Source of the DNA: a virus
Lineage: Duplodnaviria; Heunggongvirae; Uroviricota; Caudoviricetes
IMG/VR virus record: IMGVR_UViG_2671180338_000009
DNA length: 12,094 nucleotides
Strand: one strand, 5' to 3'
Shown here: piece after piece, positions 186 through 12,094 of the stretch
How the letters are laid out: each line of letters opens with the position of its first letter
Position numbering within the stretch: position 1 is the stretch's first letter
The notes under the pieces: model-generated
Database searches by the model: none
What the model saw: the letters and a program-made list of their open reading frames with translations, nothing else
What the model was told of the DNA's origin: nothing
Position numbers and translations under genes: made by a program

Positions 186-1295
186 TCACTCTGTTTCTGC
201 TATCCATTCCGGGATTTTTGCCTCAAGCTCAAGCTGCGTGGTAAAGCCGCTGTTATCAATGGTGTGCTCGGCTTTTGCAATAATCCAGTCCTGATTATCA
301 ATCTCGCTTTTAAATCCTGTTACCGTGCCATGCATTTCGGGGTAGAGTTCTGCACGTCCATGCGCCAGTGTGATGGAGAATGATGCGGCTCCGCGTTGTA
401 GCTGCTGCCACTTTGCCGCCGCTGCACGTCTTGCTGCCTGCTCGTTCTGATAAGTTTTGCGTAACACAAACACGTTGCCTTCCGCACCTTCCATATAGTC
501 GCCTTCCCGGCTGCTGCTTTTCTCCTTTTTTGGTTTTGACGGTTTGCGGCGTTTCACGCTGACTTTTTTCTTTTTCCCGTAATTAAGATCAAGCCAGTAA
601 GCGCGTACCCCCGTATACGCTTCGCGGTCAGCAATGCGGAACTGATGGCGATCGCCGCTGCTGCGTGTGATGGCGAACGAGGGCAACGGCTGGCCCTGTG
701 CGTTCACGCCACCACCGGGCATGATGAATAACAGATTACCGCTTTTTACCGTGGTGATTGCGCCCAGCATTTCCGCCATGCGCGTAAGGAAGGACATGTC
801 GCTTTCTTCGGTCTGGTCGGCGTGGTCGATTTCGATATCCATCAGCATTTCGCTGATTTGCGGTTTCAGACCATACCGATGAGCGATGGCGGATACCACA
901 CGCTCAACGGTCACATCATGCCAGGACACCTCACGTTTAACGTTAAATTCAGCCCGAAAATCTGCGCTTCTGGCTGAAACAGTCAGCCTGTCCGGCGGTC
1001 CTTCGTGAGCGATTTCATCAACAATGTAAGTGCCTTTTTCTGTCAGCGGTTCTCCCTTCCAGCCAATGAGAACCGTCAGGCGCGCGCCCCGTGGCGGTAG
1101 CTGCAACTGACCATCCGCATCATCCAGCGTGATGGTGAGCTGGTCCGCCTCAAATCCCCGGTTGTCGGTCAGTGACAGGCTCATCAGGCGCTCTGCCACG
1201 CCTGACAGCGTTTTACCCTCCGCGAGAATATCAAAATCCGGCATTTTCACGGGGTCTGTGCCCTGACTGAGCAATTGCATGGTGGTGTCGGTCAT
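186..1295 (-). CDS. D: P2 gpD-like tail protein (phage late control gene D family)
   Basis: Minus-strand ORF from ATG at 1293-1295 (MTDTTMQLLSQG...), about 369 aa, with a purine-rich Shine-Dalgarno (GGGAGGGAG, revcomp of 1299-1307) 3 nt upstream. The ORF-track start at 1427 adds an S/P/T/R-rich extension that looks non-coding. Assignment rests on size and on context next to FI-FII-E-T-U; family resemblance is recalled, not searched. Alternative start ATG at 1280. Confidence 0.6.
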   Translation of the reverse strand: MTDTTMQLLSQGTDPVKMPDFDILAEGKTLSGVAERLMSLSLTDNRGFEADQLTITLDDADGQLQLPPRGARLTVLIGWKGEPLTEKGTYIVDEIAHEGPPDRLTVSARSADFRAEFNVKREVSWHDVTVERVVSAIAHRYGLKPQISEMLMDIEIDHADQTEESDMSFLTRMAEMLGAITTVKSGNLLFIMPGGGVNAQGQPLPSFAITRSSGDRHQFRIADREAYTGVRAYWLDLNYGKKKKVSVKRRKPSKPKKEKSSSREGDYMEGAEGNVFVLRKTYQNEQAARRAAAAKWQQLQRGAASFSITLAHGRAELYPEMHGTVTGFKSEIDNQDWIIAKAEHTIDNSGFTTQLELEAKIPEWIAETE

Positions 1296-1452
1296 CTGCT
1301 CCCTCCCTGTGTGGCATGGTCGCATGTGCGTGCGGAGGGGGTTACTGCTTTTTGTTGTCGCCGTGGCGGGAGAATGGCGCAGGGGTGAGATTACGCGCGT
1401 GGTGGGTGATGATTGTTGCCGAATCATTTAACGGATACAAGGGGTTGAAGCT
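1296..1452. promoter_or_regulatory. Divergent intergenic region between D and FI; expected site of the late tail-operon promoter
   Basis: 157-bp non-coding gap between divergent start codons. In P2 the FI operon is driven by an Ogr-activated late promoter, but I could not find a clean TGT-N12-ACA activator site by eye. Confidence 0.3.
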
Positions 1453-2637
1453 ATGAGTGAAACTCGTTTTCATGGTGCCCGTGTTACGGAAAATACCGAC
1501 CTGGTAACAGCGATTAACGATGTTGATTCCAGCGTTATCGGTATCGTGGCAACGGCGGATGATGCGGACGCGGAGCTGTTCCCGCTGAACAAGCCCACAC
1601 TGCTGCCCCGCGTCAATGACGTGCTGGGAAAATGCGGAACAACGGGGACGCTTTATCGTGCGCTTAAGGCCATCGCAGACCAGGTGAGCACAAAGGTGAT
1701 CGTCGTTCGCGTGGCTGAACACAAAGAAGAAGACGGAAAAACGCAGGATCAACTGGTTATCGGTGGTTCTGAATCTGACGGCAGCTATACGGGGATGTAT
1801 GCGCTGCTTGTTGCAGAGCAGGATGAAAGCATCGGATACCGTCCGCGTATTCTGGCCGCGCCGGAGCTGGACACGGAGGCGGTGACAAAATCCCTGTGCG
1901 TGATTGCGGGTAAACTGCGCGCGTTTGTGTATGCCTCATGTCATGACTGTAACACGATGGCTGAGGCAATTACCTACCGCCAGAAATTCAACGAACGTGA
2001 GGTGATGCTCTTATGGCCGGACTTCATCGCCTACAACCCGAAAAGTGGCAAAAACGAAACGTTCCCCGCGCCTGCCTATGCGTGCGGCCTTCGTGCGTAC
2101 ATTGACCATGAGCAGGGCTGGCACAAATCGCTGTCCAACGTTCCGGTTAAAAATGTGCTGGGGATGTCCAGGCATGTGTTCTGGTCGTTGCAGGCCGAAG
2201 ACAGTGATGCCAACAGCCTCAACAACAAAGAAATCACGACCATTATTCGTCGCAACGGGTTCCGCTTCTGGGGCAACCGCACACCGGAAACGAACGCCTA
2301 CATCTTTGAGGTGTATACCCGAACCGCACAGGTGCTGGCTGATTCAATTGCGGAAGCGCAGTTTGAAACCATCGACAGTCCACTGACGCCTGCGAACGTG
2401 AAGGATGTTATCGGTGCCATCAGGGCAAAACTGGATTCACTGGTTACTGCCGGGAAACTGATTGGGGCGTCGTGCTGGTATGACGTGGTGGATAACGGCA
2501 CCACGAATTTACGTCAGGGGCGCGTGCGTATTCGCTACAAATATACGCCTGTTCCCCCGCTGGAAGACATGGAGCTTTACCAGTCGTTTACTGATGAATT
2601 CTTTGGTCCCGCATTTGCGGTGCTGGGAGGTGCCTGA
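1453..2637 (+). CDS. FI: Contractile tail sheath protein (P2 gpFI-like)
   Basis: 394-aa ORF. Conserved blocks recalled from P2 FI: DADAE.FPLNKP, KLRAF, EQGWHK.LSNV, IRR.GFRFWGNRT, YTRTAQV, YKYTPVPPLE. Stop codon overlaps the FII start (TGATG). Confidence 0.9.
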   Translation: MSETRFHGARVTENTDLVTAINDVDSSVIGIVATADDADAELFPLNKPTLLPRVNDVLGKCGTTGTLYRALKAIADQVSTKVIVVRVAEHKEEDGKTQDQLVIGGSESDGSYTGMYALLVAEQDESIGYRPRILAAPELDTEAVTKSLCVIAGKLRAFVYASCHDCNTMAEAITYRQKFNEREVMLLWPDFIAYNPKSGKNETFPAPAYACGLRAYIDHEQGWHKSLSNVPVKNVLGMSRHVFWSLQAEDSDANSLNNKEITTIIRRNGFRFWGNRTPETNAYIFEVYTRTAQVLADSIAEAQFETIDSPLTPANVKDVIGAIRAKLDSLVTAGKLIGASCWYDVVDNGTTNLRQGRVRIRYKYTPVPPLEDMELYQSFTDEFFGPAFAVLGGA

Positions 2638-3149
2638 TGGCTGTACCAAAACATCTTCGCTTTTTTACGCTGTTTGTGGATGGTGAAAACGAAGTGGGTA
2701 AGGTGACGTCCGTCACTCTGCCTAAGCTGACGCGCAAAACCGACAGCTACCGGGGTGGTGGCATGATGGGAGCGGTAAGTATTGATCTCGGCCTGGATGA
2801 CTCCGCGCTTGATGCGAGCTTTGTCATGGGGGGCGCAGTTCGTGAGCTGTTCCTTAAGTATGGCGGCACGATTGACGGTACGCTGCTGCGTTTTGCGGGT
2901 GAATACTACACCGACGCTGAAAGCGACCTGTATGAAGTCGAAATGCGCGGACGTGTGACGGAAATTGATATGGGGGAAGCCAAACAGGGCGAAGCCACAT
3001 CACACACTTACGCCATTAAAAACACCTACTACAAGCTGAGTGTTAACGATCGCCCGTTGTGGGAGATTGACCTGCTGAACTTCATTTACCGGAAGGACGG
3101 CAGGGACATTGTGCCCGATCGCATCCGTTCCGCGCTCGGGCTTGGCTGA
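2637..3149 (+). CDS. FII: Tail tube protein (P2 gpFII-like)
   Basis: 170-aa ORF directly after FI with translational coupling (ATG overlaps the FI stop). Motifs VTLPKLTRK, YRGGGM, DLGLDD and RFAG.Y resemble P2 FII. Confidence 0.9.
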   Translation: MAVPKHLRFFTLFVDGENEVGKVTSVTLPKLTRKTDSYRGGGMMGAVSIDLGLDDSALDASFVMGGAVRELFLKYGGTIDGTLLRFAGEYYTDAESDLYEVEMRGRVTEIDMGEAKQGEATSHTYAIKNTYYKLSVNDRPLWEIDLLNFIYRKDGRDIVPDRIRSALGLG

Positions 3150-3203
3150 TAAGTAATATGCAGGCGGCGCAGTGCGTCGCCTCTGACTGAAAGGAGTTTC
3201 CTG

Positions 3204-3569
3204 ATGAAAGAGACGAAAAACATCGATACCGAAAACACGGTCGTTGCTGACACTGTGAAAGAAACCAGTGAGCGTGGCGTAAAACTTACCCAACCAATTG
3301 AGCGAGGCGGCGAAAAAATCACGTATGTGGAGATCACCGGGGCTATTGAGCAGGCTGGATCTCTGCGAGATTTGTCGCTGTCTGATGTGCTGAATTTGAA
3401 AGCGGAATCCATGTTTACGCTGCTGTCACGCGTGACATCACCGCGACTGGATGAAGTGACGATCAAAAAAATGGCATCCCGTGACTTTATTCAGTTATGT
3501 GTGGTTGCCGTAAATTTTTTGAGCGGTGCGGACTCTGGCGAGAAGAACGAACAGGCGACGGAAGCCTGA
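3204..3569 (+). CDS. E: Tail assembly chaperone gpE (zero-frame product)
   Basis: 121-aa ORF with AAGGAG Shine-Dalgarno at 3191-3196, in the position between tube and tape measure. Contains the TTTTTTG slippery heptamer in frame. Confidence 0.8.
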   Translation: MKETKNIDTENTVVADTVKETSERGVKLTQPIERGGEKITYVEITGAIEQAGSLRDLSLSDVLNLKAESMFTLLSRVTSPRLDEVTIKKMASRDFIQLCVVAVNFLSGADSGEKNEQATEA

Positions 3570-3733
3570 TCACGGTTGTGTGCTTTGAGCACATAGAAGA
3601 CTTTGTGGCGGATATTGCCGCCATTTTTAACTGGTCGCCCGCCGAAATCTTCATGATGACGCCCGGCGAAGTGGTTAGCTGGCGTGAGCGGGCGGCACTT
3701 CGCAGCGGGAATGCAGACAATGAAGACTCTTGA
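3204..3733 (+). CDS. E': Tail assembly chaperone E+E' fusion made by programmed -1 frameshift (join 3204..3521 with 3521..3733)
   Basis: Slippery heptamer T_TTT_TTG at 3515-3521 is in X_XXY_YYZ phase with the E frame. The -1 frame is open from there to TGA at 3731-3733 and matches ORF 3497..3733. This is analogous to P2 E/E' and lambda G/GT. The fusion overlaps the start of T. Confidence 0.7.
3515..3521 (+). other. -1 ribosomal frameshift slippery site (TTTTTTG)
   Basis: Seen directly in the sequence; phase is correct relative to the E reading frame. Confidence 0.7.
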
Positions 3734-6527
3734 TATCCGGGTCGCTTTCAGCGCCGTTGACAGGCTGACCCGGCCTGCCGAAAACGCCCGCCGCCTGATG
3801 GGGCAGTTTGGTGACTCCATCCAGCGAACGCAGGGGGCGATCAAAAATCTCGAGCGTCAGGCGCGTTCATTTGAGCGCGCCCGTGACGCTGTCAGTAAAG
3901 CGGATGCGGGCATCGTGAAAGCACGACGCCAGCTTAACGCCCTTAATCAGTTACAACGCACGGGTACAGTGCTCAGCGAAAAACAACAAAAGCTGATGCA
4001 GCAGTTAAGCACCCGGCTTGAACGCCTGAATGAATCGCGCACACGGGAAATTCAGAAAATGCGGGAACTTGGCGGAGAGCTGAAACGCCACGGCATTTCC
4101 CTGACAGGCAGCGATAACACCATCCAGCAGGCCATCAGACGCACCGGACAATACAACAACCAGCTTGAACGCGAACGGCGGGCGCTTGCGCGTGTAACGC
4201 AGGCGCGTGAGCGGTATTCACGCGCGCAGGAAACAGCGGGAAAACTGAAAACAGGTGGTGCGCTGGCAACAGGTGCGGCGGCAGCGGGCGGCTATGCTGC
4301 CGGGCGTTTTTTGCAGCCCGCTATCGGGTTCGGGAAAGAGATGTCCCGTGTTCAGGCACTGACGCGAATCGATAAAAACAGCCCGCAGTTTAAGGCGCTG
4401 CGTGAGCAGGCGTTAAAACTTGGCTCTGAAACGCAGTTCACCGCAGGCGATGCCGCCAGTGGACAGGCATTTCTTGCAATGGCTGGTTTCACACCGCAGG
4501 CCATTCAGGCTGCGCTTCCCGGCGTGCTGAGCATGGCAACGGCTGGCGGTATGGACCTCGGCGAGACGGCGGATATTGGTTCCAATATCCTGACGCAGTT
4601 CGGCCTCTCTGCTGACCAGATGGACCGGGTCGGTGACACACTTACCGCAGCGTTTACCCGTACCAACACTGACCTTCGCGCACTGGGCGAAACCATGAAA
4701 TATGCAGGTCCGGTGGCGGGTAAGCTGGGAATATCGCTGGAGCAGGCCGCAGCGATGGCGGGCGTGCTGGCGAAGATGGGTATCAGGGGGAGTGATGCAG
4801 GTACAGCGTTGCGTAAAAGCCTGGCCAATCTGTCATCACCGCCAAAGGCAGCGGCAGAAGCACTGAAAGAGCTGGGGGTGTCAGTTGCTGACGCCAAAGG
4901 CAAAATGCGCCCGATGGAGAATGTGCTGGCCGATCTCTATAAAGCCACCCGCAAATACGGGGAGGTTGACCGGGTATCGTTCTTTAAGGACATTGCCGGA
5001 GAAGAGGCTTTCACATCATTTATGGGCCTCGTTGATGCGGCAGGTGACGGCTTCTTAGCCAAACTGAGAAAAGAACTTGAAGGCGCGCGCGGTGAGGCAG
5101 AACGCACGGCAAAGGTTATGGCCAATAACCTTGATGGCAACCTGAAATCACTCGGCAGTGCATGGGAAGGTCTGCGTATTCGCATCAGTGATCTGGTTGA
5201 CGGTCCGCTGCGTTCTGTCACGCAGTGGCTCACGCGGGTTGTCTCAAAGGTGACGGCGCTGGCGCAGGCCCACCCGGCACTGACGCGCCAGTTACTGATA
5301 GCGGGAGGCGCACTGCTGGCGACAACAGCAACGGTTGGTTCGTTGTCTCTGGTTATTGGGGTGCTTCACGGGAAGCTGGCTACGTTGCGTCTCGGTTTTT
5401 CTCTCCTGACCGAATCAATGAATGTTGTCAGGGTTCTGCCTGCATTATGGGGAATGGTGACGGGTTCCGTTTCTTTACTTGGTGGCGCTATCGGGGCGCT
5501 GTTCAGTCCGGTTAGTCTTATCGTGGCTGCGCTTGCCGGAGCTGCCGTTCTTATCTGGAAATACTGGGATCCCATCAGGGCATTTTTTGCCGGGGTGTTC
5601 AGCGGGATTATGGAAAGGCTGACCCCGTTGCGCGAAACCTTTGAACGGTTTGGCCCTGTTTTTGATGTCGTGCGCGATGGGATTATTCAGGTCTTTAACT
5701 GGTTTAAATCGCTGCTGTCACCGATGGAGTCCAGCAAGGAAACGCTGGATAAATGTGCCAGTGCTGGCGAGATATTCGGTAACGTTCTTGGCGGTGCGTT
5801 ACAACTTGTTCTGACACCTGCAAAAATGCTACTGGATACGCTGGCGTGGATACTTGAAAAACTTGGCGTCCTTCCGGATGAAGCGGAAAGGGCGCGCAAG
5901 AAAATCGAAGACGCACAGCGTGCGGCCATTCTTCAGGACAAGGTTGCCTTGCTTCAGGGGGACCTGGCGAAAATCAATCCGCCGAAGCCTGTGGAAAATG
6001 GCAATGGCACCGGAGGTGATAAACCCAAAGACAACAAACCGCTCACAGACAGCAATACCGGGACGCTACGCAGACTCAGCAAAATTGCTGATAACACAGG
6101 TAAGCTGGTTGATGAGACGAAAAAACGCATTGGCCCCGGCGATATTGTCTTTAAGAACCTGCCCCGCGCACTTGCTGTTCGTGGGGAGTGGCAGGAGCGG
6201 AAGATTGCGCAGGTCAGTAAGCCTGCCCCCGCAATTAATATCACACCCGTGGTCCCGGCTCCGCTGCCTCCGGCGCTGGTCCCTGTTGTTGCGGCCAGCT
6301 CCCGCCCGGTGGCGGAGGCCATACGCTCTCCAGTGGCATCAGTTCCTGTAACTTCCCGTAACCGGGAGCCTGTTGCCTCCGGATTTGGTGGTGAAATTCA
6401 TGTTCATCTGCATAACGTTGTTACGCAGAATCCCCGCGAACTGGCGAAACTGGTCGGTGAAATGGTCAGGGCAGAAATGGAACGGCGCGCCCGTGCCGGG
6501 CGTGGCAGTTTTTACGATAAAGATTGA
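3711..6527 (+). CDS. T: Tail tape measure protein (P2 gpT-like)
   Basis: About 938-aa ORF after E/E'. N-terminal half is coiled-coil-like and rich in Q/R/E/L; there is a central Ala/Gly-rich hydrophobic stretch and a C-terminal Pro/Val-rich tail. Start taken as ATG 3711 (alternative ATG 3720); the ORF-track start at 3684 is a GTG extension. Confidence 0.85.
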   Translation: MQTMKTLDIRVAFSAVDRLTRPAENARRLMGQFGDSIQRTQGAIKNLERQARSFERARDAVSKADAGIVKARRQLNALNQLQRTGTVLSEKQQKLMQQLSTRLERLNESRTREIQKMRELGGELKRHGISLTGSDNTIQQAIRRTGQYNNQLERERRALARVTQARERYSRAQETAGKLKTGGALATGAAAAGGYAAGRFLQPAIGFGKEMSRVQALTRIDKNSPQFKALREQALKLGSETQFTAGDAASGQAFLAMAGFTPQAIQAALPGVLSMATAGGMDLGETADIGSNILTQFGLSADQMDRVGDTLTAAFTRTNTDLRALGETMKYAGPVAGKLGISLEQAAAMAGVLAKMGIRGSDAGTALRKSLANLSSPPKAAAEALKELGVSVADAKGKMRPMENVLADLYKATRKYGEVDRVSFFKDIAGEEAFTSFMGLVDAAGDGFLAKLRKELEGARGEAERTAKVMANNLDGNLKSLGSAWEGLRIRISDLVDGPLRSVTQWLTRVVSKVTALAQAHPALTRQLLIAGGALLATTATVGSLSLVIGVLHGKLATLRLGFSLLTESMNVVRVLPALWGMVTGSVSLLGGAIGALFSPVSLIVAALAGAAVLIWKYWDPIRAFFAGVFSGIMERLTPLRETFERFGPVFDVVRDGIIQVFNWFKSLLSPMESSKETLDKCASAGEIFGNVLGGALQLVLTPAKMLLDTLAWILEKLGVLPDEAERARKKIEDAQRAAILQDKVALLQGDLAKINPPKPVENGNGTGGDKPKDNKPLTDSNTGTLRRLSKIADNTGKLVDETKKRIGPGDIVFKNLPRALAVRGEWQERKIAQVSKPAPAINITPVVPAPLPPALVPVVAASSRPVAEAIRSPVASVPVTSRNREPVASGFGGEIHVHLHNVVTQNPRELAKLVGEMVRAEMERRARAGRGSFYDKD

Positions 6528-6539
6528 GGAGTCATGGCC

Positions 6540-7028
6540 ATGATGATGATCTACGGCATGTTTGTTTTTGAGCTGCGTACATTGCCGCATCAGCAGTTAC
6601 AGCAAAACAAAAGCTGGCGGCATGTGAAAAATGAACGCGTTAACCGTTCGGCAAGCTGGCAGTATATCGGTGCAGGTGATGAGCGCATCGTTCTTTCTGG
6701 TGTGCTTTATCCTGAAATTACAGGTGGCGAAGTGTCGCTGTCGCTGCTGACCACGCAGGCGTATACAGGACGACCCTGGCCTCTGATTGATGGCGTCGGG
6801 CAGATTTACGGCATGTATGTCCTGACCGAAACGAATACGACCCGCTCCGAGTTTGATCGCTACGGTAAGGCGAAAAAGATAGAATTTTCACTGACTCTTG
6901 AACGCTGTGATGAGGATTTGCGGGAGCGCCTGCAATCCTCATCGTTCAGCGATATGCTGTCCGGCTTCAAAGATAAGGTAACATCATCCCTTAACAGCGC
7001 GGCCAGTTCAGTTAAAGGGTTGTTCTGA
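6540..7028 (+). CDS. U: Tail protein gpU-like
   Basis: MMMIYGMFVFELRTLP... resembles the P2 gpU N-terminus. GAGGA Shine-Dalgarno at 6526-6530 gives 9-nt spacing to ATG 6540; ATG 6534 is an alternative start. Confidence 0.85.
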   Translation: MMMIYGMFVFELRTLPHQQLQQNKSWRHVKNERVNRSASWQYIGAGDERIVLSGVLYPEITGGEVSLSLLTTQAYTGRPWPLIDGVGQIYGMYVLTETNTTRSEFDRYGKAKKIEFSLTLERCDEDLRERLQSSSFSDMLSGFKDKVTSSLNSAASSVKGLF

Positions 7029-7039
7029 TTTAACACAAA

Positions 7040-7075
7040 AACCGCTAATGGTCAGATTAGCGGTTATTTTGTTTC
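7040..7075. terminator. Bidirectional rho-independent terminator between convergent U and pin
   Basis: 10-bp stem AACCGCTAAT (7040-7049) pairs with ATTAGCGGTT (7056-7065) around a 6-nt loop. It is followed by ATTTTGTTT on the + strand and by TTTGTGTT on the - strand. Confidence 0.5.
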
Positions 7076-7651
7076 CTGACTCTTCTCTATTGTTCCGATT
7101 GATTCTCCTGCGGGGTGGTAACGATAAATCGTCGATATACCAATGCCGTAAATTATTGCCAGTTGTTTTCTGTCGTGCCCGTTTTTGATCAGCCTTGCTA
7201 TTTGCTCATGCTGTTCTTTTGTCAGCTTCGGTCGACGTCCGCCTGTGCGCCCCCGTGCGCGTGCTGCCGCCAGTCCGGCCAGTGTACGTTCAACAATTAA
7301 TTCACGTTCCATTTCAGCCAGGGCACCCATCACGTGGAAGAAAAAACGCCCCATTGGAGAAGATGTATCTATGCTGTCGGTCAGACTGCGAAAATTAATT
7401 CCTCGCTCCCGTAGTTCCCCGACGAGAGAAATCAGATGTTTCATGCTTCGCCCGAGGCGATCCAGTTTCCAGACAACCAGCGTGTCACCTTTTTGAAGGC
7501 GCTTTAAAGCGCGTTTTAATCCCGGTCGGTCTGTCTTTGTCCCGCTTAATTTATCTTCAAATATTTGTTCACATCCTGCACAAACAAGAGCGTTTCGTTG
7601 CAGGTCTGTATTCTGGTCATTTGTTGATACCCTTACATAGCCAATCAGCAC
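7064..7651 (-). CDS. pin: Serine DNA invertase, Hin/Gin/Pin/Cin family
   Basis: N-terminus (M)LIGYVRVSTNDQNTDLQRNAL... with the catalytic Ser in the GYVRVS motif and a C-terminal HTH. It is near-identical over long stretches to Gin/Pin as I recall them. Start taken as GTG at 7649-7651 with GGGAGA Shine-Dalgarno upstream; the ORF-track start at 7675 is also GTG. Confidence 0.85.
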   Translation of the reverse strand: MLIGYVRVSTNDQNTDLQRNALVCAGCEQIFEDKLSGTKTDRPGLKRALKRLQKGDTLVVWKLDRLGRSMKHLISLVGELRERGINFRSLTDSIDTSSPMGRFFFHVMGALAEMERELIVERTLAGLAAARARGRTGGRRPKLTKEQHEQIARLIKNGHDRKQLAIIYGIGISTIYRYHPAGESIGTIEKSQETK

Positions 7652-7705
7652 GCTGAATCTCCCGTCCAAAAGCACAAATCATGCCATGCAGGCCAGAAAC
7701 CGCCA

Positions 7706-7733: not shown

Positions 7734-8412
7734 GGTAAATCAGGCTTCTGGCGCATTACAGAAAAACCAGAACGGCGCAGATATTCCGGGGAAAGATACC
7801 TTCACCAAAAATATTGGTGCCTGCCGCGCATATAGCTCATGGCTGAATATTGGTGGCGATAGTCAGGTCTGGACAACCGCGCAATTTATTTCGTGGCTGG
7901 AGAGTCAGGGAGCATTTAACCATCCTTACTGGATGTGCAAAGGCTCATGGGCTTATGCAAATAATAAGGTCATTACAGATACAGGTTGCGGAAATATTTG
8001 TCTTGCAGGTGCTGTGGTGGAAGTTATTGGCACTCGCGGCGCAATGACCATACGCGTTACCACGCCGAGCACGTCCAGCGGTGGCGGAATTACTAACGCT
8101 CAATTCACTTATATTAATCATGGTGATGCTTACGCTCCTGGCTGGCGACGAGACTACAACACGAAAAATCAACAACCTGCATTTGCTTTAGGGCAAACAG
8201 GAAGCACTGTCGGAAATGATAAAGCTGTTGGCTGGAACTGGAATAGCGGGGTCTATAACGCAAACATTGGTGGCGCATCGACATTAATCCTCCACTTCAA
8301 TATGAATACGGGGAGCTGCCCTGCTGTACAGTTCCGCGTGAATTACAGGAACGGCGGTATTTTTTATCGTTCAGCGCGTGATGGTTATGGCTTTGAAGCT
8401 GACTGGTCAGAG
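7714..8412 (+). pseudogene. 5' portion of a variable tail-fibre C-terminal domain, truncated by IS insertion
   Basis: The frame is open from just after TAA 7711-7713 (inside the gix site) to the IS boundary, with no start codon of its own. It begins LGLQETVNQASGALQKNQNG..., typical of an invertible-segment tail-fibre module that is expressed only when fused to the constant part. It ends ...GFEADWSE, and the IS left end supplies the TGA stop at 8413-8415. Confidence 0.7.
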
Positions 8413-8476
8413 TGAGGTAGCCTGAGTTTAACGGACACTCCTTCCTGAAATAGAATGGCATCAGAAGGAGCTAATA

Positions 8477-8779
8477 ATGAGCAGAAAAACCCAACGTTAC
8501 TCTAAAGAGTTCAAAGCCGAAGCTGTCAGAACGGTTCTTGAAAATCAACTTTCGATCAGTGAAGGCGCTTCCCGATTATCTCTTCCTGAAGGCACTTTAG
8601 GACAATGGGTTACCGCCGCCAGAAAAGGGCTCGGTACTCCTGGTTCCCGCACGGTGGCTGAACTGGAATCTGAAATTCTGCAACTGCGTAAGGCGTTAAA
8701 TGAAGCTCGCCTTGAGCGAGATATATTAAAAAAAGCAACAGCGTATTTTGCACAGGAGTCGCTGAAAAATACGCGTTAA
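8477..8779 (+). CDS. IS3-family transposase OrfA (HTH and leucine-zipper part)
   Basis: 100-aa ORF MSRKTQRYSKEFKAEAVRTV... with the slippery run A_AAA_AAA_G at 8728-8735 near its 3' end. Confidence 0.9.
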   Translation: MSRKTQRYSKEFKAEAVRTVLENQLSISEGASRLSLPEGTLGQWVTAARKGLGTPGSRTVAELESEILQLRKALNEARLERDILKKATAYFAQESLKNTR

Positions 8780-9633
8780 TCGAACAATGGCGACAACAAT
8801 TTCCCATTGAAGCGATGTGTCAGGTATTTGGTGTATCCAGGAGCGGTTATTACAACTGGGTACAGCATGAACCCTCAGACAGAAAACAAAGTGATGAGCG
8901 GCTAAAACTGGAGATTAAGGTGGCACATATCCGCACTCGCGAAACATATGGAACCCGGCGGCTCCAGACGGAGCTGGCAGAGAATGGCATCATCGTTGGT
9001 CGTGACCGACTGGCACGTCTTCGTAAGGAGCTAAGGCTACGCTGTAAGCAGAAACGCAAGTTCAGAGCGACTACGAACTCGAACCACAATCTGCCAGTTG
9101 CGCCAAATCTGCTGAACCAGACGTTCGCTCCTACAGCACCAAATCAGGTCTGGGTGGCGGACCTGACGTATGTTGCCACACAGGAGGGATGGTTGTACCT
9201 CGCTGGCATCAAAGATGTTTATACGTGCGAAATTGTCGGCTACGCCATGGGAGAGCGCATGACAAAAGAGCTGACAGGTAAAGCCCTGTTTATGGCGCTC
9301 AGGAGCCAGCGCCCACCTGCCGGGCTAATCCACCACTCTGATCGAGGTTCACAGTACTGCGCATACGATTACCGGGTCATACAGGAGCAGTCTGGTCTGA
9401 AAACATCAATGTCGCGTAAAGGTAACTGTTACGACAACGCTCCGATGGAAAGCTTCTGGGGAACGCTGAAAAATGAGAGCCTGAGCCACTATCGTTTTAA
9501 TAACCGGGATGAAGCCATCTCAGTAATACGGGAATACATTGAGATTTTCTACAATCGTCAGCGTCGTCACTCTCGTCTGGGGAATATCTCCCCGGCAGCC
9601 TTCAGGGAAAAATATCATCAGATGGCTGCTTAA
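8477..9633 (+). CDS. IS3-family transposase OrfAB (-1 frameshift fusion; OrfB DDE catalytic domain 8815..9633)
   Basis: OrfB is in the -1 frame relative to OrfA, and that frame is open from 8734. DDE-type motifs are present (HSDRGSQY, SMSRKGNCYDNAPMESFWGTLKNE, YNRQRRHSRLG). Confidence 0.9.
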
Positions 9634-9676
9634 AAAAAGAACAAATGGTAGTGTCCGCTATTGCCAGTACACCTCA

Positions 9677-10693
9677 ACGGCAGGCAAGTTTCCGTATTTT
9701 ACGGGGAATGATGTCGCCAGCCTGGCAACCCTGACAAAAGTCGGGCGGGATATTCTTGCGAAATCGACCGTTGCTGCCGTTATCGAATACCTCGGTTTAC
9801 AGGAAACGGTAAACAAGGCTGGTAACGCCGTTCAGCGTTCCGGCGATAAAATGACCGGAGAACTGAAAATTGGCACGGTGAATGCGCTGCGAATTTTCAA
9901 TGATACCTTCGGTCTAATTTTCCGTCGTTCAGAAGATTTTCTTCATTTCATTCCGACGGCTGAAGGACAAGGCGAAAACGGTAATATCGGCCCATTAAGG
10001 CCATTCGCTATAAATCTGAGAACAGGTGCTATATCTGTCAGCCACGGGGCCAAAATTAAAGGAGGTCTAGCTATTGGAGCTACTGATAACGCACTGGGTG
10101 AAAACTCCATTGTTCTGGGAGATAACGACACCGGATTTAGGCAAGATGGAGATGGTATTATTAGCTTCTATTCAAATGGTTCGCGCATCGGACATATTGA
10201 TGAGTTAGGATTACATCTTTATAAAGATATTGAATCTAATGGCAGCAATTTTAGATTAAAAAGTAATTACCGCCACCACATTACATTCGCCAACGAAGAC
10301 GGAAGAATTCGTATGTTTTTGTGGAAAGATAACGGTGGTGATGGTGTTCATATTAATAACGGTTCAGATGGTGGTGGTGATTTCATTTTTAAAACAGATG
10401 GGGGATTTGCGCTGGGAAGTGGTGCGCAAGTTGCGTCTAGTGGCGATATTTATGGTTCAGTGTGGGAAAACAACTGGTTAAGCACATGGCTGCATAATCA
10501 TGTCGTTCGGGATATTCGTCTTGGCAGCATTGAATATAAAAACGTATGGCGCGACTACGGCTTTGGCGATGCGTCAGGTTATGTTTTAACAGCCGCAATT
10601 AACAGCAATGCGGATGATATTGTCGACACTGTTGCCAGAAGGCCAATTCAGAAATTGATTGGGGGAATATGGTACAACGTGGGGAGTGTTTAA
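9677..10693 (+). pseudogene. 5'-truncated tail-fibre gene (P2 gpH / Mu S type): 38 codons of constant region, embedded gix site, variable C-terminal domain
   Basis: The frame is open immediately from the IS right end (TAGKFPYFTGNDVASLATLTKVGRDILAKSTVAAVIEYLGLQETVNKAG...) and ends ...[11 protein letters not shown], like the P2 H C-terminus I recall (…GTWYNVAQV). There is no start codon or promoter of its own; the ORF-track start at 9539 lies inside the IS. Confidence 0.75.
9780..9807. other. gix/pix-like invertase crossover site 2 (inside tail-fibre coding sequence)
   Basis: TTATCGAATACCTCGGTTTACAGGAAAC. Sequence 9790-9813 is identical over 24 bp to 7716-7739 around site 1. It is on the same strand and in the same orientation as site 1 in the present arrangement. 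Confidence 0.65.
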
Positions 10694-10694
10694 G

Positions 10695-11222
10695 ATGATG
10701 CACCTGAAAAATATTAAGGCCGGGAATCCGAAAACACCGGAACAATACCAGCTAACTAAAAAAGCGGGCGTGGTATGGCTCTTTTGCGAAGATGGCAAAA
10801 ACTGGTATGAGGAACAAAAGAATTTTCAGCCAGACACCATAAAAATTGCTTACGATGAGAACAACATCATCGTTGCTGTCAGTAAAGACGTTTCAACTAT
10901 TAATCCTGAAGGGCTAAGCATAGTTGAAGTTCCTGATATTACGGCAAATCGTCACGCAGACAATAACGGAAAATGGATGTTTCTGGATGGTAAAGTAGTA
11001 AAGAGGGAATATACAGAACAGGAACTGCAACAACAGGCCGAATCACAAAAGGCCGCATTGCTTTCCGAAGCTGAATCAGTCATCCAGCCGCTGGAACGCG
11101 CTGTCAGGCTGAATATGGCGACGGACGAGGAACGCACACGACTGGAAGCATGGGAACGCTACAGTGTTCTGGTCAGCCGTGTGGATACGGCAAAGCCAGA
11201 ATGGCCACAAAAGCCTGAGTAA
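10695..11222 (+). CDS. tfa: Tail-fibre assembly chaperone (Tfa / P2 gpG-like), partner of the + strand variable domain
   Basis: Starts [23 protein letters not shown]... at ATG 10695, 1 nt after the tail-fibre stop. Its N-terminal ~45 aa are shared with the convergent paralogue and the C-terminus diverges. Confidence 0.85.
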
Positions 11223-11250: not shown

Positions 11251-11784
11251 TCATTCTGGTTGTTCGGGAAACGTTACTGGCAGGCTGGAGGTGTCTGTGG
11301 ATTCGACCTTCTGCGCATAGAGCATCCACTCGGTTAATTTTTGTTTATTCTCGTCGGAAATAATGCCCAGCCGTAGCTGTGAGTCCCATAGCTGGGTTTT
11401 ATCCCTGACGAGCTGTAGCAGGCTTTGCTTTTCATTTTCCGCTTGTTGCCTCTGCTCTTCCCCGGTATAAGTTCGCTTTATCACTACGCCATCTTTGAAC
11501 ATCCATTTACCTGAAATATCAGCCCGGCGATTTGCTGTAATATCAGGAACCTCAACGACGCTTGCGCCTTCCGGATTAATTGCTGAAACATCCTTTTCAA
11601 TACAAATAATAACGCCGTTGTGGTCATAGACCATTTTCAACGTATCAGGCTGAAAGTTCTTTTGTTCCTCATACCAGTTTTTCCCATCCTCTGTATAAAG
11701 CCATTTGATGTTAAATTGTTTCGTTAGCTGGTATTGCTCTTTTGTTTCAGGATTACCAGCAGAAATGTTTTTTAAGTGCATCAT
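11251..11784 (-). CDS. tfa: Tail-fibre assembly chaperone, alternative copy (Tfa'), partner of the - strand variable domain
   Basis: Starts MMHLKNISAGNPETKEQYQLTKQ... and is convergent with the + strand tfa. Its start lies 2 nt downstream of the stop of the - strand tail-fibre fragment. Confidence 0.85.
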   Translation of the reverse strand: MMHLKNISAGNPETKEQYQLTKQFNIKWLYTEDGKNWYEEQKNFQPDTLKMVYDHNGVIICIEKDVSAINPEGASVVEVPDITANRRADISGKWMFKDGVVIKRTYTGEEQRQQAENEKQSLLQLVRDKTQLWDSQLRLGIISDENKQKLTEWMLYAQKVESTDTSSLPVTFPEQPE

Positions 11785-11786
11785 CG

Positions 11787-12053
11787 TTAAATACTCCCCG
11801 CGTTATACCACGTCCCATTAATGCAATACTGAATTGGCCTTGCCTGAGTTGTATCAATTAGTTCATCTCTGTTTGAGTTAACGGAACCGGTAACAACATA
11901 ACCTGACCTGTCAGACCATCCGGGACCATTCCATGTCTGAACAGATAACAGACCACCAAGGCGAATACCTGTAATAAACCTTGAGTTACATTCTGCCTGC
12001 GTATATGCACCAACATCTCCCGCAGAGGGTTTGCGGGTTGTGGTGTAAAACTC
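11787..12053 (-). pseudogene. 3' portion of the variable tail-fibre C-terminal domain (the other half of 7714..8412)
   Basis: Hand translation of the - strand frame gives EFYTTTRKPSAGDVGAYTQAECNSRFITGIRLGGLLSVQTWNGPGWSDRSGYVVTGSVNSNRDELIDTTQARPIQYCINGTWYNAGSI, then a stop at 11787-11789. The frame is open right up to the IS boundary at 12053 and has no start codon; it is absent from the ORF track for that reason. Confidence 0.7.
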
Positions 12054-12094
12054 TGAGGTGTACTGGCAATAGCGGACACTACCATTTGTTCTTT
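12054..12094 (-). mobile_element. Terminal 41 bp (right-end inverted repeat) of a second, inverted IS600-like copy, cut by the window edge
   Basis: 12054-12094 is the exact reverse complement of 9636-9676, the right end of the complete IS. Identity stops precisely at the IS terminus. Confidence 0.75.

Follow-up and report, generated by a model that had tools for sequence, protein, structure and literature searches.

The genes E and E' of the prophage analysed here are very probably decoded by a programmed -1 frameshift from one start codon, giving the short protein E and the longer E+E' as in phage P2. This reading is based on the anatomy of the locus, on the homology of both of its parts, on selection acting in the -1 frame beyond the slip site and on the conservation of slipperiness, and from these we infer that the fusion is produced. 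Neither the mechanism nor the family is new: the frameshift of P2-like E/E' was described in 2002, and tail-chaperone frameshifting in general in 1993 and 2004.

The window, meaning the whole stretch of 12,094 nucleotides that was analysed (IMG/VR record IMGVR_UViG_2671180338_000009), corresponds to the tail module of a P2-family prophage, with the genes in the order sheath, tube, E, tape measure and U (Table 1). The E/E' pair sits between FII and T, and the gene order is the same in P2 (NC_001895). The window was 98% identical to phage P88. Over positions 3150-3800, the identity was 98-99% to the Escherichia phages 500465-2, PhiR44_2 and P88 (Xuanwuvirus, Peduoviridae) and ~85% to the sister lineage of P884B11, 503458, 520873 and Citrobacter phage Shae_phiSM (PhiSM). 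Judged by sequence, the element is assignable to the P88-like E. coli prophages of Xuanwuvirus, Peduoviridae. Many complete E. coli genomes carry related prophages.

The zero-frame codons of E at the slip site are TTT (3516-3518) and TTG (3519-3521), which places TTTTTTG in the X_XXY_YYZ phase. Reading in the -1 frame from G3521 gives 70 sense codons (3521-3730) followed by TGA at 3731-3733, and the end of E' overlaps the tape-measure ATG (3720) by 14 nt. The initial annotation had placed T_TTT_TTG at this position and in the correct phase, and had described a -1 frame open for 70 codons with a stop overlapping the tape-measure start; the codon reading bore out all of these points. The second in-phase heptamer, A_AAT_TTT, is absent from that description. 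The two heptamers overlap in a 10-nt stretch, A_AAU_UUU_UUG (3512-3521), and both are located 16-17 codons before the E stop codon (3567-3569). Joining 3204-3521 to 3521-3733 gives an inferred E+E' product of 176 aa and ~19.5 kDa; E would have a mass of 13 kDa, and a free E' initiated at 3578 one of 5.7 kDa.

Table 1. Features of the E/E' locus and of the surrounding tail module (positions in the window).
Feature	Position	Strand	Basis and remarks
gpD	186-1427	-	Pfam
Tail sheath gene FI	1453-2637	+	Pfam Phage_sheath_1, E=2.3e-19
Tail tube gene FII	2637-3149	+	Directly 5' of E; Pfam Phage_tube, E=1.9e-46
Shine-Dalgarno AAGGAG	3191-3196	+	7 nt 5' of the E start codon; read from the sequence
Gene E, putative short tail assembly chaperone, 121 aa, zero frame	3204-3569	+	ORF; PHROG 103; RefSeq 'phage tail protein E'
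Slippery heptamer A_AAT_TTT, in phase, 5' candidate shift site	3512-3518	+	Genus-wide in Xuanwuvirus
Slippery heptamer T_TTT_TTG, in phase, 3' candidate shift site	3515-3521	+	Identical to the P2 E/E' site
E' extension, -1 frame, 70 codons + TGA	3521-3733	+	PF06528, PHROG 1756, purifying selection
Annotated separate 51-aa 'GpE family phage tail protein'	3578-3733	+	GenBank/RefSeq, GTG 3578
Tape measure gene T	3720-6527	+	Pfam PhageMin_Tail, E=1.4e-57; ATG as in the P88/RefSeq annotation
gpU	6534-7028		Pfam

Both parts of the inferred fusion matched the corresponding parts of the P2 system. The zero-frame E protein belonged to PHROG 103 (E=1.8e-35), the family of P2 gpE (9e-43), and scored 17.2 bits against Pfam Phage_TAC_7, under the gathering cut-off of 25. 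The -1 peptide within the fusion matched Pfam PF06528 Phage_P2_GpE with 44.6 bits (cut-off 23, E=9.7e-12), and the 70-residue peptide matched PHROG 1756 (E=2.1e-38) and PHROG 6416 (4e-11). The PHROG 1756 alignment spanned residues 103-174 of the fusion, beginning at the slip site. The motif IEDxVADIAxIFxWxPxE...WRERAxxRSG of E' was conserved over 15 phages. A search of solved structures with the fusion sequence returned nothing relevant (best match SoxA, E=0.7), and an NCBIfam scan of the fusion gave no match.

The P2 record itself (NC_001895) describes 'E+E', shares amino terminus with gpE; -1 frameshift', and annotates both E and E+E' as essential tail proteins. The frameshift is marked directly after TTTTTTG and, when checked, the P2 heptamer was in phase and at homologous Phe-Leu codons, between FII and T as in the window. 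P2 E+E' matched the same three PHROGs as the fusion (103, 1756, 6416) as well as PF06528, and its -1 extension likewise ends overlapping the T start. In a BLASTP comparison, P2 E+E' and the inferred fusion aligned in a single segment that crosses the junction (GFL|V in P2, NFL|E here; E=3e-25, 31% identity). The -1 region therefore does resemble E' homologues, and the initial proposal of a conserved P2-type chaperone recoding is supported by the Pfam and PHROG matches, by the alignment with P2 and by the gene order. The P2 E/E+E' frameshift, by which a low, fixed proportion of the fusion is produced and of which neither product is dispensable, goes back to Christie et al. 2002 (J Bacteriol 184:6522), as cited in PMC3091744 and PMC3931495, and its TTTTTTG site is conserved among P2-like phages (PMC3091744; PMC3931495).

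The two loci also differ in several respects. P2 E has 91 aa and the E of the window 121 aa, with an N-terminal extension in the latter, and the E tail after the slip site counts 6 codons in P2 versus 15 in the window. E' is 57 codons long in P2 and 70 codons long in the window because of a longer linker in the window (ERCGLWREERTGDG...). P2 lacks A_AAT_TTT, having C GGT TTT TTG instead, whereas the window carries the additional overlapping heptamer. Finally, the frameshift is annotated in P2 but unannotated in the clade of the window.

We have compared 32 E/E' regions, 19 of them taken from phage records and 13 from bacterial genomes each representing a species; a scan of viral contigs with E alone gave only loci of 98-100% identity, which were of no use for covariation. 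An in-phase X_XXY_YYZ heptamer within the two-frame overlap was present at all 32 loci. It lay at the codons aligned with Asn-Phe-Leu of the window in all of them but a Mannheimia phage, where G_GGA_AAG is found further downstream, and among 15 phages of gamma-, beta- and alpha-proteobacteria, 13 shared one alignment column for the junction. When 23 loci were compared without gaps, the codon preceding Phe always ended in T (23/23), although it encoded N, P, D, T, G or S; Phe was TTT in 21 and Leu was TTG in 20, while the flanking columns varied freely. T6G or T7 occurred in 20 of these 23 diverse relatives, and the majority of the 20 lack a 5' heptamer. In each lineage lacking T6N, a perfect heptamer (A_AAT_TTT or C_CCT_TTC) stood one codon further 5', versus 2 of the 20 lineages with T6N. 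The few departures from T6N are compensated by this upstream heptamer. Taken together, the comparison shows at the sequence level that slipperiness itself is conserved in the nucleotides.

Two related lineages illustrate this compensation. In the sister Xuanwuvirus phages (P884B11, PhiSM, 503458, 520873), E is orthologous with 80% identity, and the long E' linker and the overlap with T are the same, but T6G is lost (TTTTATG) and A_AAT_TTT is the one heptamer kept. The Klebsiella Reipivirus E/E' genes are likewise orthologous (43% identity in E) and share the long linker and the T overlap; they read TTTCTTG and have C_CCT_TTC one codon upstream as their single heptamer. The window, in contrast to both, has two heptamers. 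Among P88-like IMG/VR loci, the slip site was kept in 80 of 80. An IMG/VR search with GTAAATTTTNTGAGCG was followed over the first 120 matches listed, unrelated ones included, of which 94 were in Xuanwuvirus context. Among these matches, 49 sequences were of P88 type with TTTTTTG, ~45 were of sister type with TTTTATG, and one P88-type sequence had TTTTATG; A_AAT_TTT was present in every Xuanwuvirus-context sequence among the matches listed.

The pattern of substitutions changed at the slip site. Between the window and the P884B11 lineage, 35 of 60 substitutions 5' of the site were at zero-frame third positions, and after the E stop codon 6 of 8 were at third positions of the -1 frame. Over 11 diverse loci, the highest variability upstream was at zero-frame position 3 (0.56), and right after the Phe-Leu codons it moved to -1-frame position 3. 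At this latter position, the overlap preceding the E stop had a variability of 0.45, the linker one of 0.59 and the conserved domain one of 0.36. As read from these substitutions, the comparison shows the -1 frame to be under purifying selection, beginning at the slip site.

The heptamer by itself is no more than expected by chance. About 0.3% of the codons in this window carry an in-phase X_XXY_YYZ heptamer, and a second in-phase TTTTTTG lies at 4307 within the tape-measure gene, with only 20 open -1 codons after it. Among the codon positions of neighbouring genes, 2.8% had a -1 frame open for at least 70 codons, and the share in shuffles was 4.4%. What takes the E/E' site beyond chance is the combination of the position of the heptamer, a -1 ORF ending on the T start, the setting between the tube gene and T, the homology and the conservation.

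In public annotation, E' is not an extension of E. P88, its relatives and RefSeq E. coli genomes carry it as an independent protein of 51 aa initiated at GTG 3578, a sequence deposited from at least 1000 contigs and with a GTG that is conserved in the sister clade. Were this correct, no recoding would take place. Yet GTG 3578 has no Shine-Dalgarno sequence and is buried in the stem of a 9-bp hairpin (3576-3596), and the -1-frame constraint, already present at the slip site, starts 57 nt upstream of it. Across 3521-3577, the -1 peptide was identical to that of the P884B11 lineage at 14 of 19 residues, versus 8 of 15 for the zero-frame E tail. The PHROG 1756 alignment also starts ahead of the GTG, at fusion residue 103, and an independent E' would leave the invariant T-run and the compensated heptamers unexplained. 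In P2, E' is reported to have no ribosome binding site and to be produced as an extension of E (PMC3931495). Given the constraint upstream of the GTG, the missing Shine-Dalgarno sequence and the hairpin stem, we consider separate initiation very unlikely, and the annotated 3578-3733 ORF was judged, from sequence features, to be the probable 3' part of E+E' and not an independent gene.

A recoding at the level of transcription would be another way to obtain the fusion, with RNA polymerase slipping on the T6 run and adding one U to a fraction of the mRNAs. The run is homopolymeric here and extends to T7 in relatives. However, appreciable transcriptional slippage in E. coli takes runs of about 8-9 or more, for which six residues are too few, and the run is only T4 (TTTTATG) in about half of the sampled Xuanwuvirus sequences among the matches listed and TTTCTT in the Klebsiella relatives. 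Moreover, X_XXY_YYZ is kept in the correct codon phase at all loci; as the phase matters to ribosomes only, this argues for the ribosome rather than the polymerase, and slippage during transcription seems to us hardly credible.

For a ribosomal frameshift, the window offers two sites whose predicted junctions differ by one residue, ...VNFLER... for T_TTT_TTG and ...VNFFER... for A_AAT_TTT. The fusion junction peptide would be DFIQLCVVAVNF(L/F)ER, and the expected tryptic junction peptide would be DFIQLCVVAVNFLER for a shift on T_TTT_TTG and DFIQLCVVAVNFFER, heavier by about 34 Da, for a shift on A_AAT_TTT. In E. coli reporters, UUUUUUG gave 0.12% frameshifting with no stimulator, 0.25% with the IS911 stimulators and 0.77% with the IS3 pseudoknot, the corresponding values for AAAUUUU being 0.07%, 0.36% and 11.4% (PMC4066793 supplement). 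A phage with TTTTATG, PhiSM, is described as temperate and fully functional (PMC6456863). Since A_AAT_TTT is invariant in the genus and PhiSM is functional, this heptamer ranks no lower than T6G as a candidate, and since about half of the sampled genus retains A_AAT_TTT only, the shift may fall on either. The T6G slip site put forward in the initial annotation therefore stands as far as its presence, its phase and its identity with P2 are concerned, but it is neither the sole candidate nor surely the main one, given that A_AAT_TTT is found genus-wide.

It is possible, if doubtful, that the frameshift takes place on T_TTT_TTG (3515-3521) only, with the junction ...VNFL|ERC... and with A_AAT_TTT being incidental. 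The same heptamer at homologous codons is the annotated -1 site of P2, T6G or T7 prevails among the diverse relatives, mostly in the absence of a 5' heptamer, and unstimulated UUUUUUG (0.118%) shifts slightly more than AAAUUUU (0.070%) in the E. coli reporters (PMC4066793 supplement). On the other hand, ~45 of the 94 Xuanwuvirus-context sequences among the matches listed, PhiSM included, have TTTTATG and A_AAT_TTT alone, the lineages lacking T6N all carry the perfect heptamer one codon upstream, and UUY is preferred over UUG in the A site by E. coli rules. Another possibility is a slippage mainly on A_AAT_TTT (3512-3518), with the junction ...VNF|FERC... and T6G being here an ancestral or redundant second site. 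In addition to its invariance across the genus among the IMG/VR matches listed, A_AAT_TTT is of the H_HHU_UUY type, which is among the most efficient in E. coli (11.4% for AAAUUUU vs 0.77% for UUUUUUG with the IS3 pseudoknot), and the sole heptamer of the Klebsiella relatives, C_CCT_TTC, stands at this position. Nevertheless, unstimulated AAAUUUU is near background (0.070% vs 0.055%), no stimulator was detected at E/E', and P2 and most relatives have no 5' heptamer and rely on T6G, so we hold this second possibility only tentatively. Finally, we may speculate that the window represents an evolutionary stage in the migration of a recoding site, in which a slippery sequence of 10 nt contains two overlapping and usable heptamers, the sister lineages keeping one heptamer each, either A_AAT_TTT or C_CCT_TTC upstream or the P2-type T_TTT_TTG.

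An RNA stimulator appears not to be involved. No structure beyond that of shuffled sequences was found in the 50-60 nt after the site in five folds (z from +0.65 to -0.46), which included 3522-3581 (+0.65), 3526-3575 (-0.37), the P884B11 lineage (-0.46) and P2 (-0.01). Hence, the stimulatory structure downstream of 3521 that the initial annotation had suggested looking for was not supported in the window (z +0.65 to -0.37). P2 resembles the window in this respect, as it is described as having no downstream RNA structure (PMC3091744; PMC3931495). The nearest solid hairpin begins 55 nt downstream of the site, as against the 5-9 nt expected of a dnaX- or IS3-type stimulator, an Rfam scan of the whole window gave no match, and no Shine-Dalgarno-like motif was present 6-17 nt upstream of the site (3498-3509, TGTGTGGTTGCC). 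With no stimulator found, the efficiency of slippage is not predictable. A terminator-like hairpin at 3605-3624 was also considered as a regulatory element and rejected; it encodes VADIAAIF, the most conserved E' motif, and is thus probably a by-product of coding.

The best model is accordingly that of unstimulated tandem tRNA slippage. The IS3-family orfA/orfB and dnaX frameshifts also proceed by tandem tRNA slippage on X_XXY_YYZ in E. coli, but their heptamers are A-rich and depend on strong stimulators, be it an upstream Shine-Dalgarno-like sequence, a downstream hairpin or a pseudoknot, none of which was found at E/E'. An element of the IS3 family, IS600, is present in the same window, with its frameshift heptamer A_AAA_AAA at 8728-8734.

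In the proposed mechanism, translation would start at 3204 and most ribosomes would stay in the zero frame up to 3567-3569, producing the 121-aa E. A minority would slip back by one nucleotide on A_AAU_UUU_UUG (3512-3521) as their P-site and A-site tRNAs re-pair, either on A_AAU_UUU, on U_UUU_UUG or on both. The shifted ribosomes would then read the -1 frame up to 3733, giving the 176-aa E+E'. By analogy with E/E+E' of P2 and G/GT of lambda, the two products would serve the tape measure T as tail assembly chaperones, and the slippage efficiency would set the ratio of the short to the long product.

Phage lambda, whose slip site is G_GGA_AAG, is like the window in having two overlapping ORFs flanked by the major tail or tube gene on one side and the tape-measure gene on the other. 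Its tail is non-contractile, in contrast to the present system. The lambda and P2 families are not expected to share sequence similarity (PMC3931495). The lambda proteins G and GT bind the tape measure and the T domain recruits the major tail protein; assembly depends critically on their 30:1 ratio, and the virion contains neither product (PMC5009743). On the lambda model, the E' domain might bind the tube protein. The work on the tail-chaperone frameshift by Levin et al. 1993 and by Xu, Hendrix and Duda (2004, 2013, 2014) is referred to here as cited in PMC5009743.

The proteins of 121 aa and 51 aa have been deposited from hundreds to thousands of contigs, and the 176-aa fusion, in either junction version, was absent among 15 billion proteins. 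We attribute this absence to annotation practice. The frameshift is mentioned in neither the P88 nor the PhiSM paper.

If both heptamers were used, two E+E' isoforms would be made, with ...VNFLER... and ...VNFFER..., respectively. If the double site is indeed one in migration, a frameshift site would have moved by one codon with function never being lost. The P2 shift is said to occur at a frequency of ~10%; set against ~0.1% or less for unstimulated slippage, this value would, under the same supposition, point to an unrecognised stimulator such as the nascent peptide or ribosome spacing. The practical value of the finding is the correction of an annotation in a very widespread prophage family, one that is very common in E. 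coli and Shigella. With E' deposited as a free-standing ORF and the fusion undeposited, the long chaperone is systematically missing from the databases. In addition, the compensated variation of the heptamers within one genus provides a clean natural series for testing which of them E. coli ribosomes use when no stimulator is present.

In public records E', the -1-frame extension of the short tail assembly chaperone gene E, appears as a protein in its own right, a 51-aa "GpE family phage tail protein" with GTG 3578 as its start codon (3578-3733). This is the case for the Xuanwuvirus phages P88, P884B11, 503458 and 520873, as well as for RefSeq E. coli entries. No copy of the 176-aa E+E' fusion was present among the 15 billion proteins of the collection searched. 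The E+E' product is systematically missing from annotation across this prophage family. One of the relatives' loci collected for comparison (L102, NZ_JBQPOM010000071.1, 226-kb contig) carries a copy of the enterobacterial prophage region studied here with 94% identity, in an assembly labelled "Vagococcus sp. WN89Y", and Vagococcus is a Firmicute; it is most likely a contaminated or mislabelled assembly.

The tape-measure gene provided an internal control for the slippery sequence. It contains a second in-phase TTTTTTG, after which the -1 frame stays open for 20 codons only. This is probably a chance occurrence, showing that the heptamer by itself is not diagnostic. The two hairpins inside E' lie at least 55 nt from the slip site, a distance too great for classical frameshift stimulators. 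The hairpin preceding E has a fold z-score of -1.9 and no T-tail. The annotated partial terminator tI of phage 186 sits at the matching place, as does a terminator predicted in a Mannheimia phage. This hairpin might reduce expression of E, the tape-measure gene T and the tail gene U relative to that of the sheath and tube genes.

Features located in the window
Feature	Position	Strand	Remarks
gpD-like gene	186-1427	-	
Hairpin GGCGGCGCA...UGCGUCGCC	3162-3182		tube-E intergenic region; 9-bp, GC-rich
Hairpin	3576-3596		inside E'; 9-bp stem, annotated GTG 3578 within it
Hairpin	3605-3624		inside E'; 7-bp stem then TTTTT; codes for conserved VADIAAIF motif
TTTTTTG, second occurrence	4307-4313		within tape-measure gene
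Serine DNA invertase and two tail-fibre-assembly genes	7064-7675, 10659-11222, 11251-11784	-, +, -	post-U region
IS600 copy (IS3 family)	8401-9677		in tail-fibre region; 99.6% identity to annotated copies
IS600 orfA	8477-8779		
IS600 orfB frame	8716-9633		open
A_AAA_AAA, -1	8728-8734		IS600 slippery heptamer, in-phase

The gene order differs from that of P2, in which gpD follows U, whereas in the window the gpD-like gene lies upstream of the sheath gene FI and on the opposite strand. Downstream of U we found a serine DNA invertase gene and two oppositely oriented tail-fibre-assembly genes, the latter with an imperfect inverted repeat on either side (10639-10763 and 11716-11841). This region looks like an invertible tail-fibre host-range segment of the Gin/Cin/Pin type.

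The IS600 heptamer is a second programmed frameshift within the window, unrelated to that of E/E'; the shift gives a 385-aa OrfAB transposase. The last 41 nt of the window (12054-12094) repeat the right end of IS600 (9636-9676) perfectly in inverted orientation, which suggests that a second, inverted IS600 copy starts there. The IS600 insertion has probably disrupted a tail-fibre gene and, thus, the prophage copy in the window may be defective.
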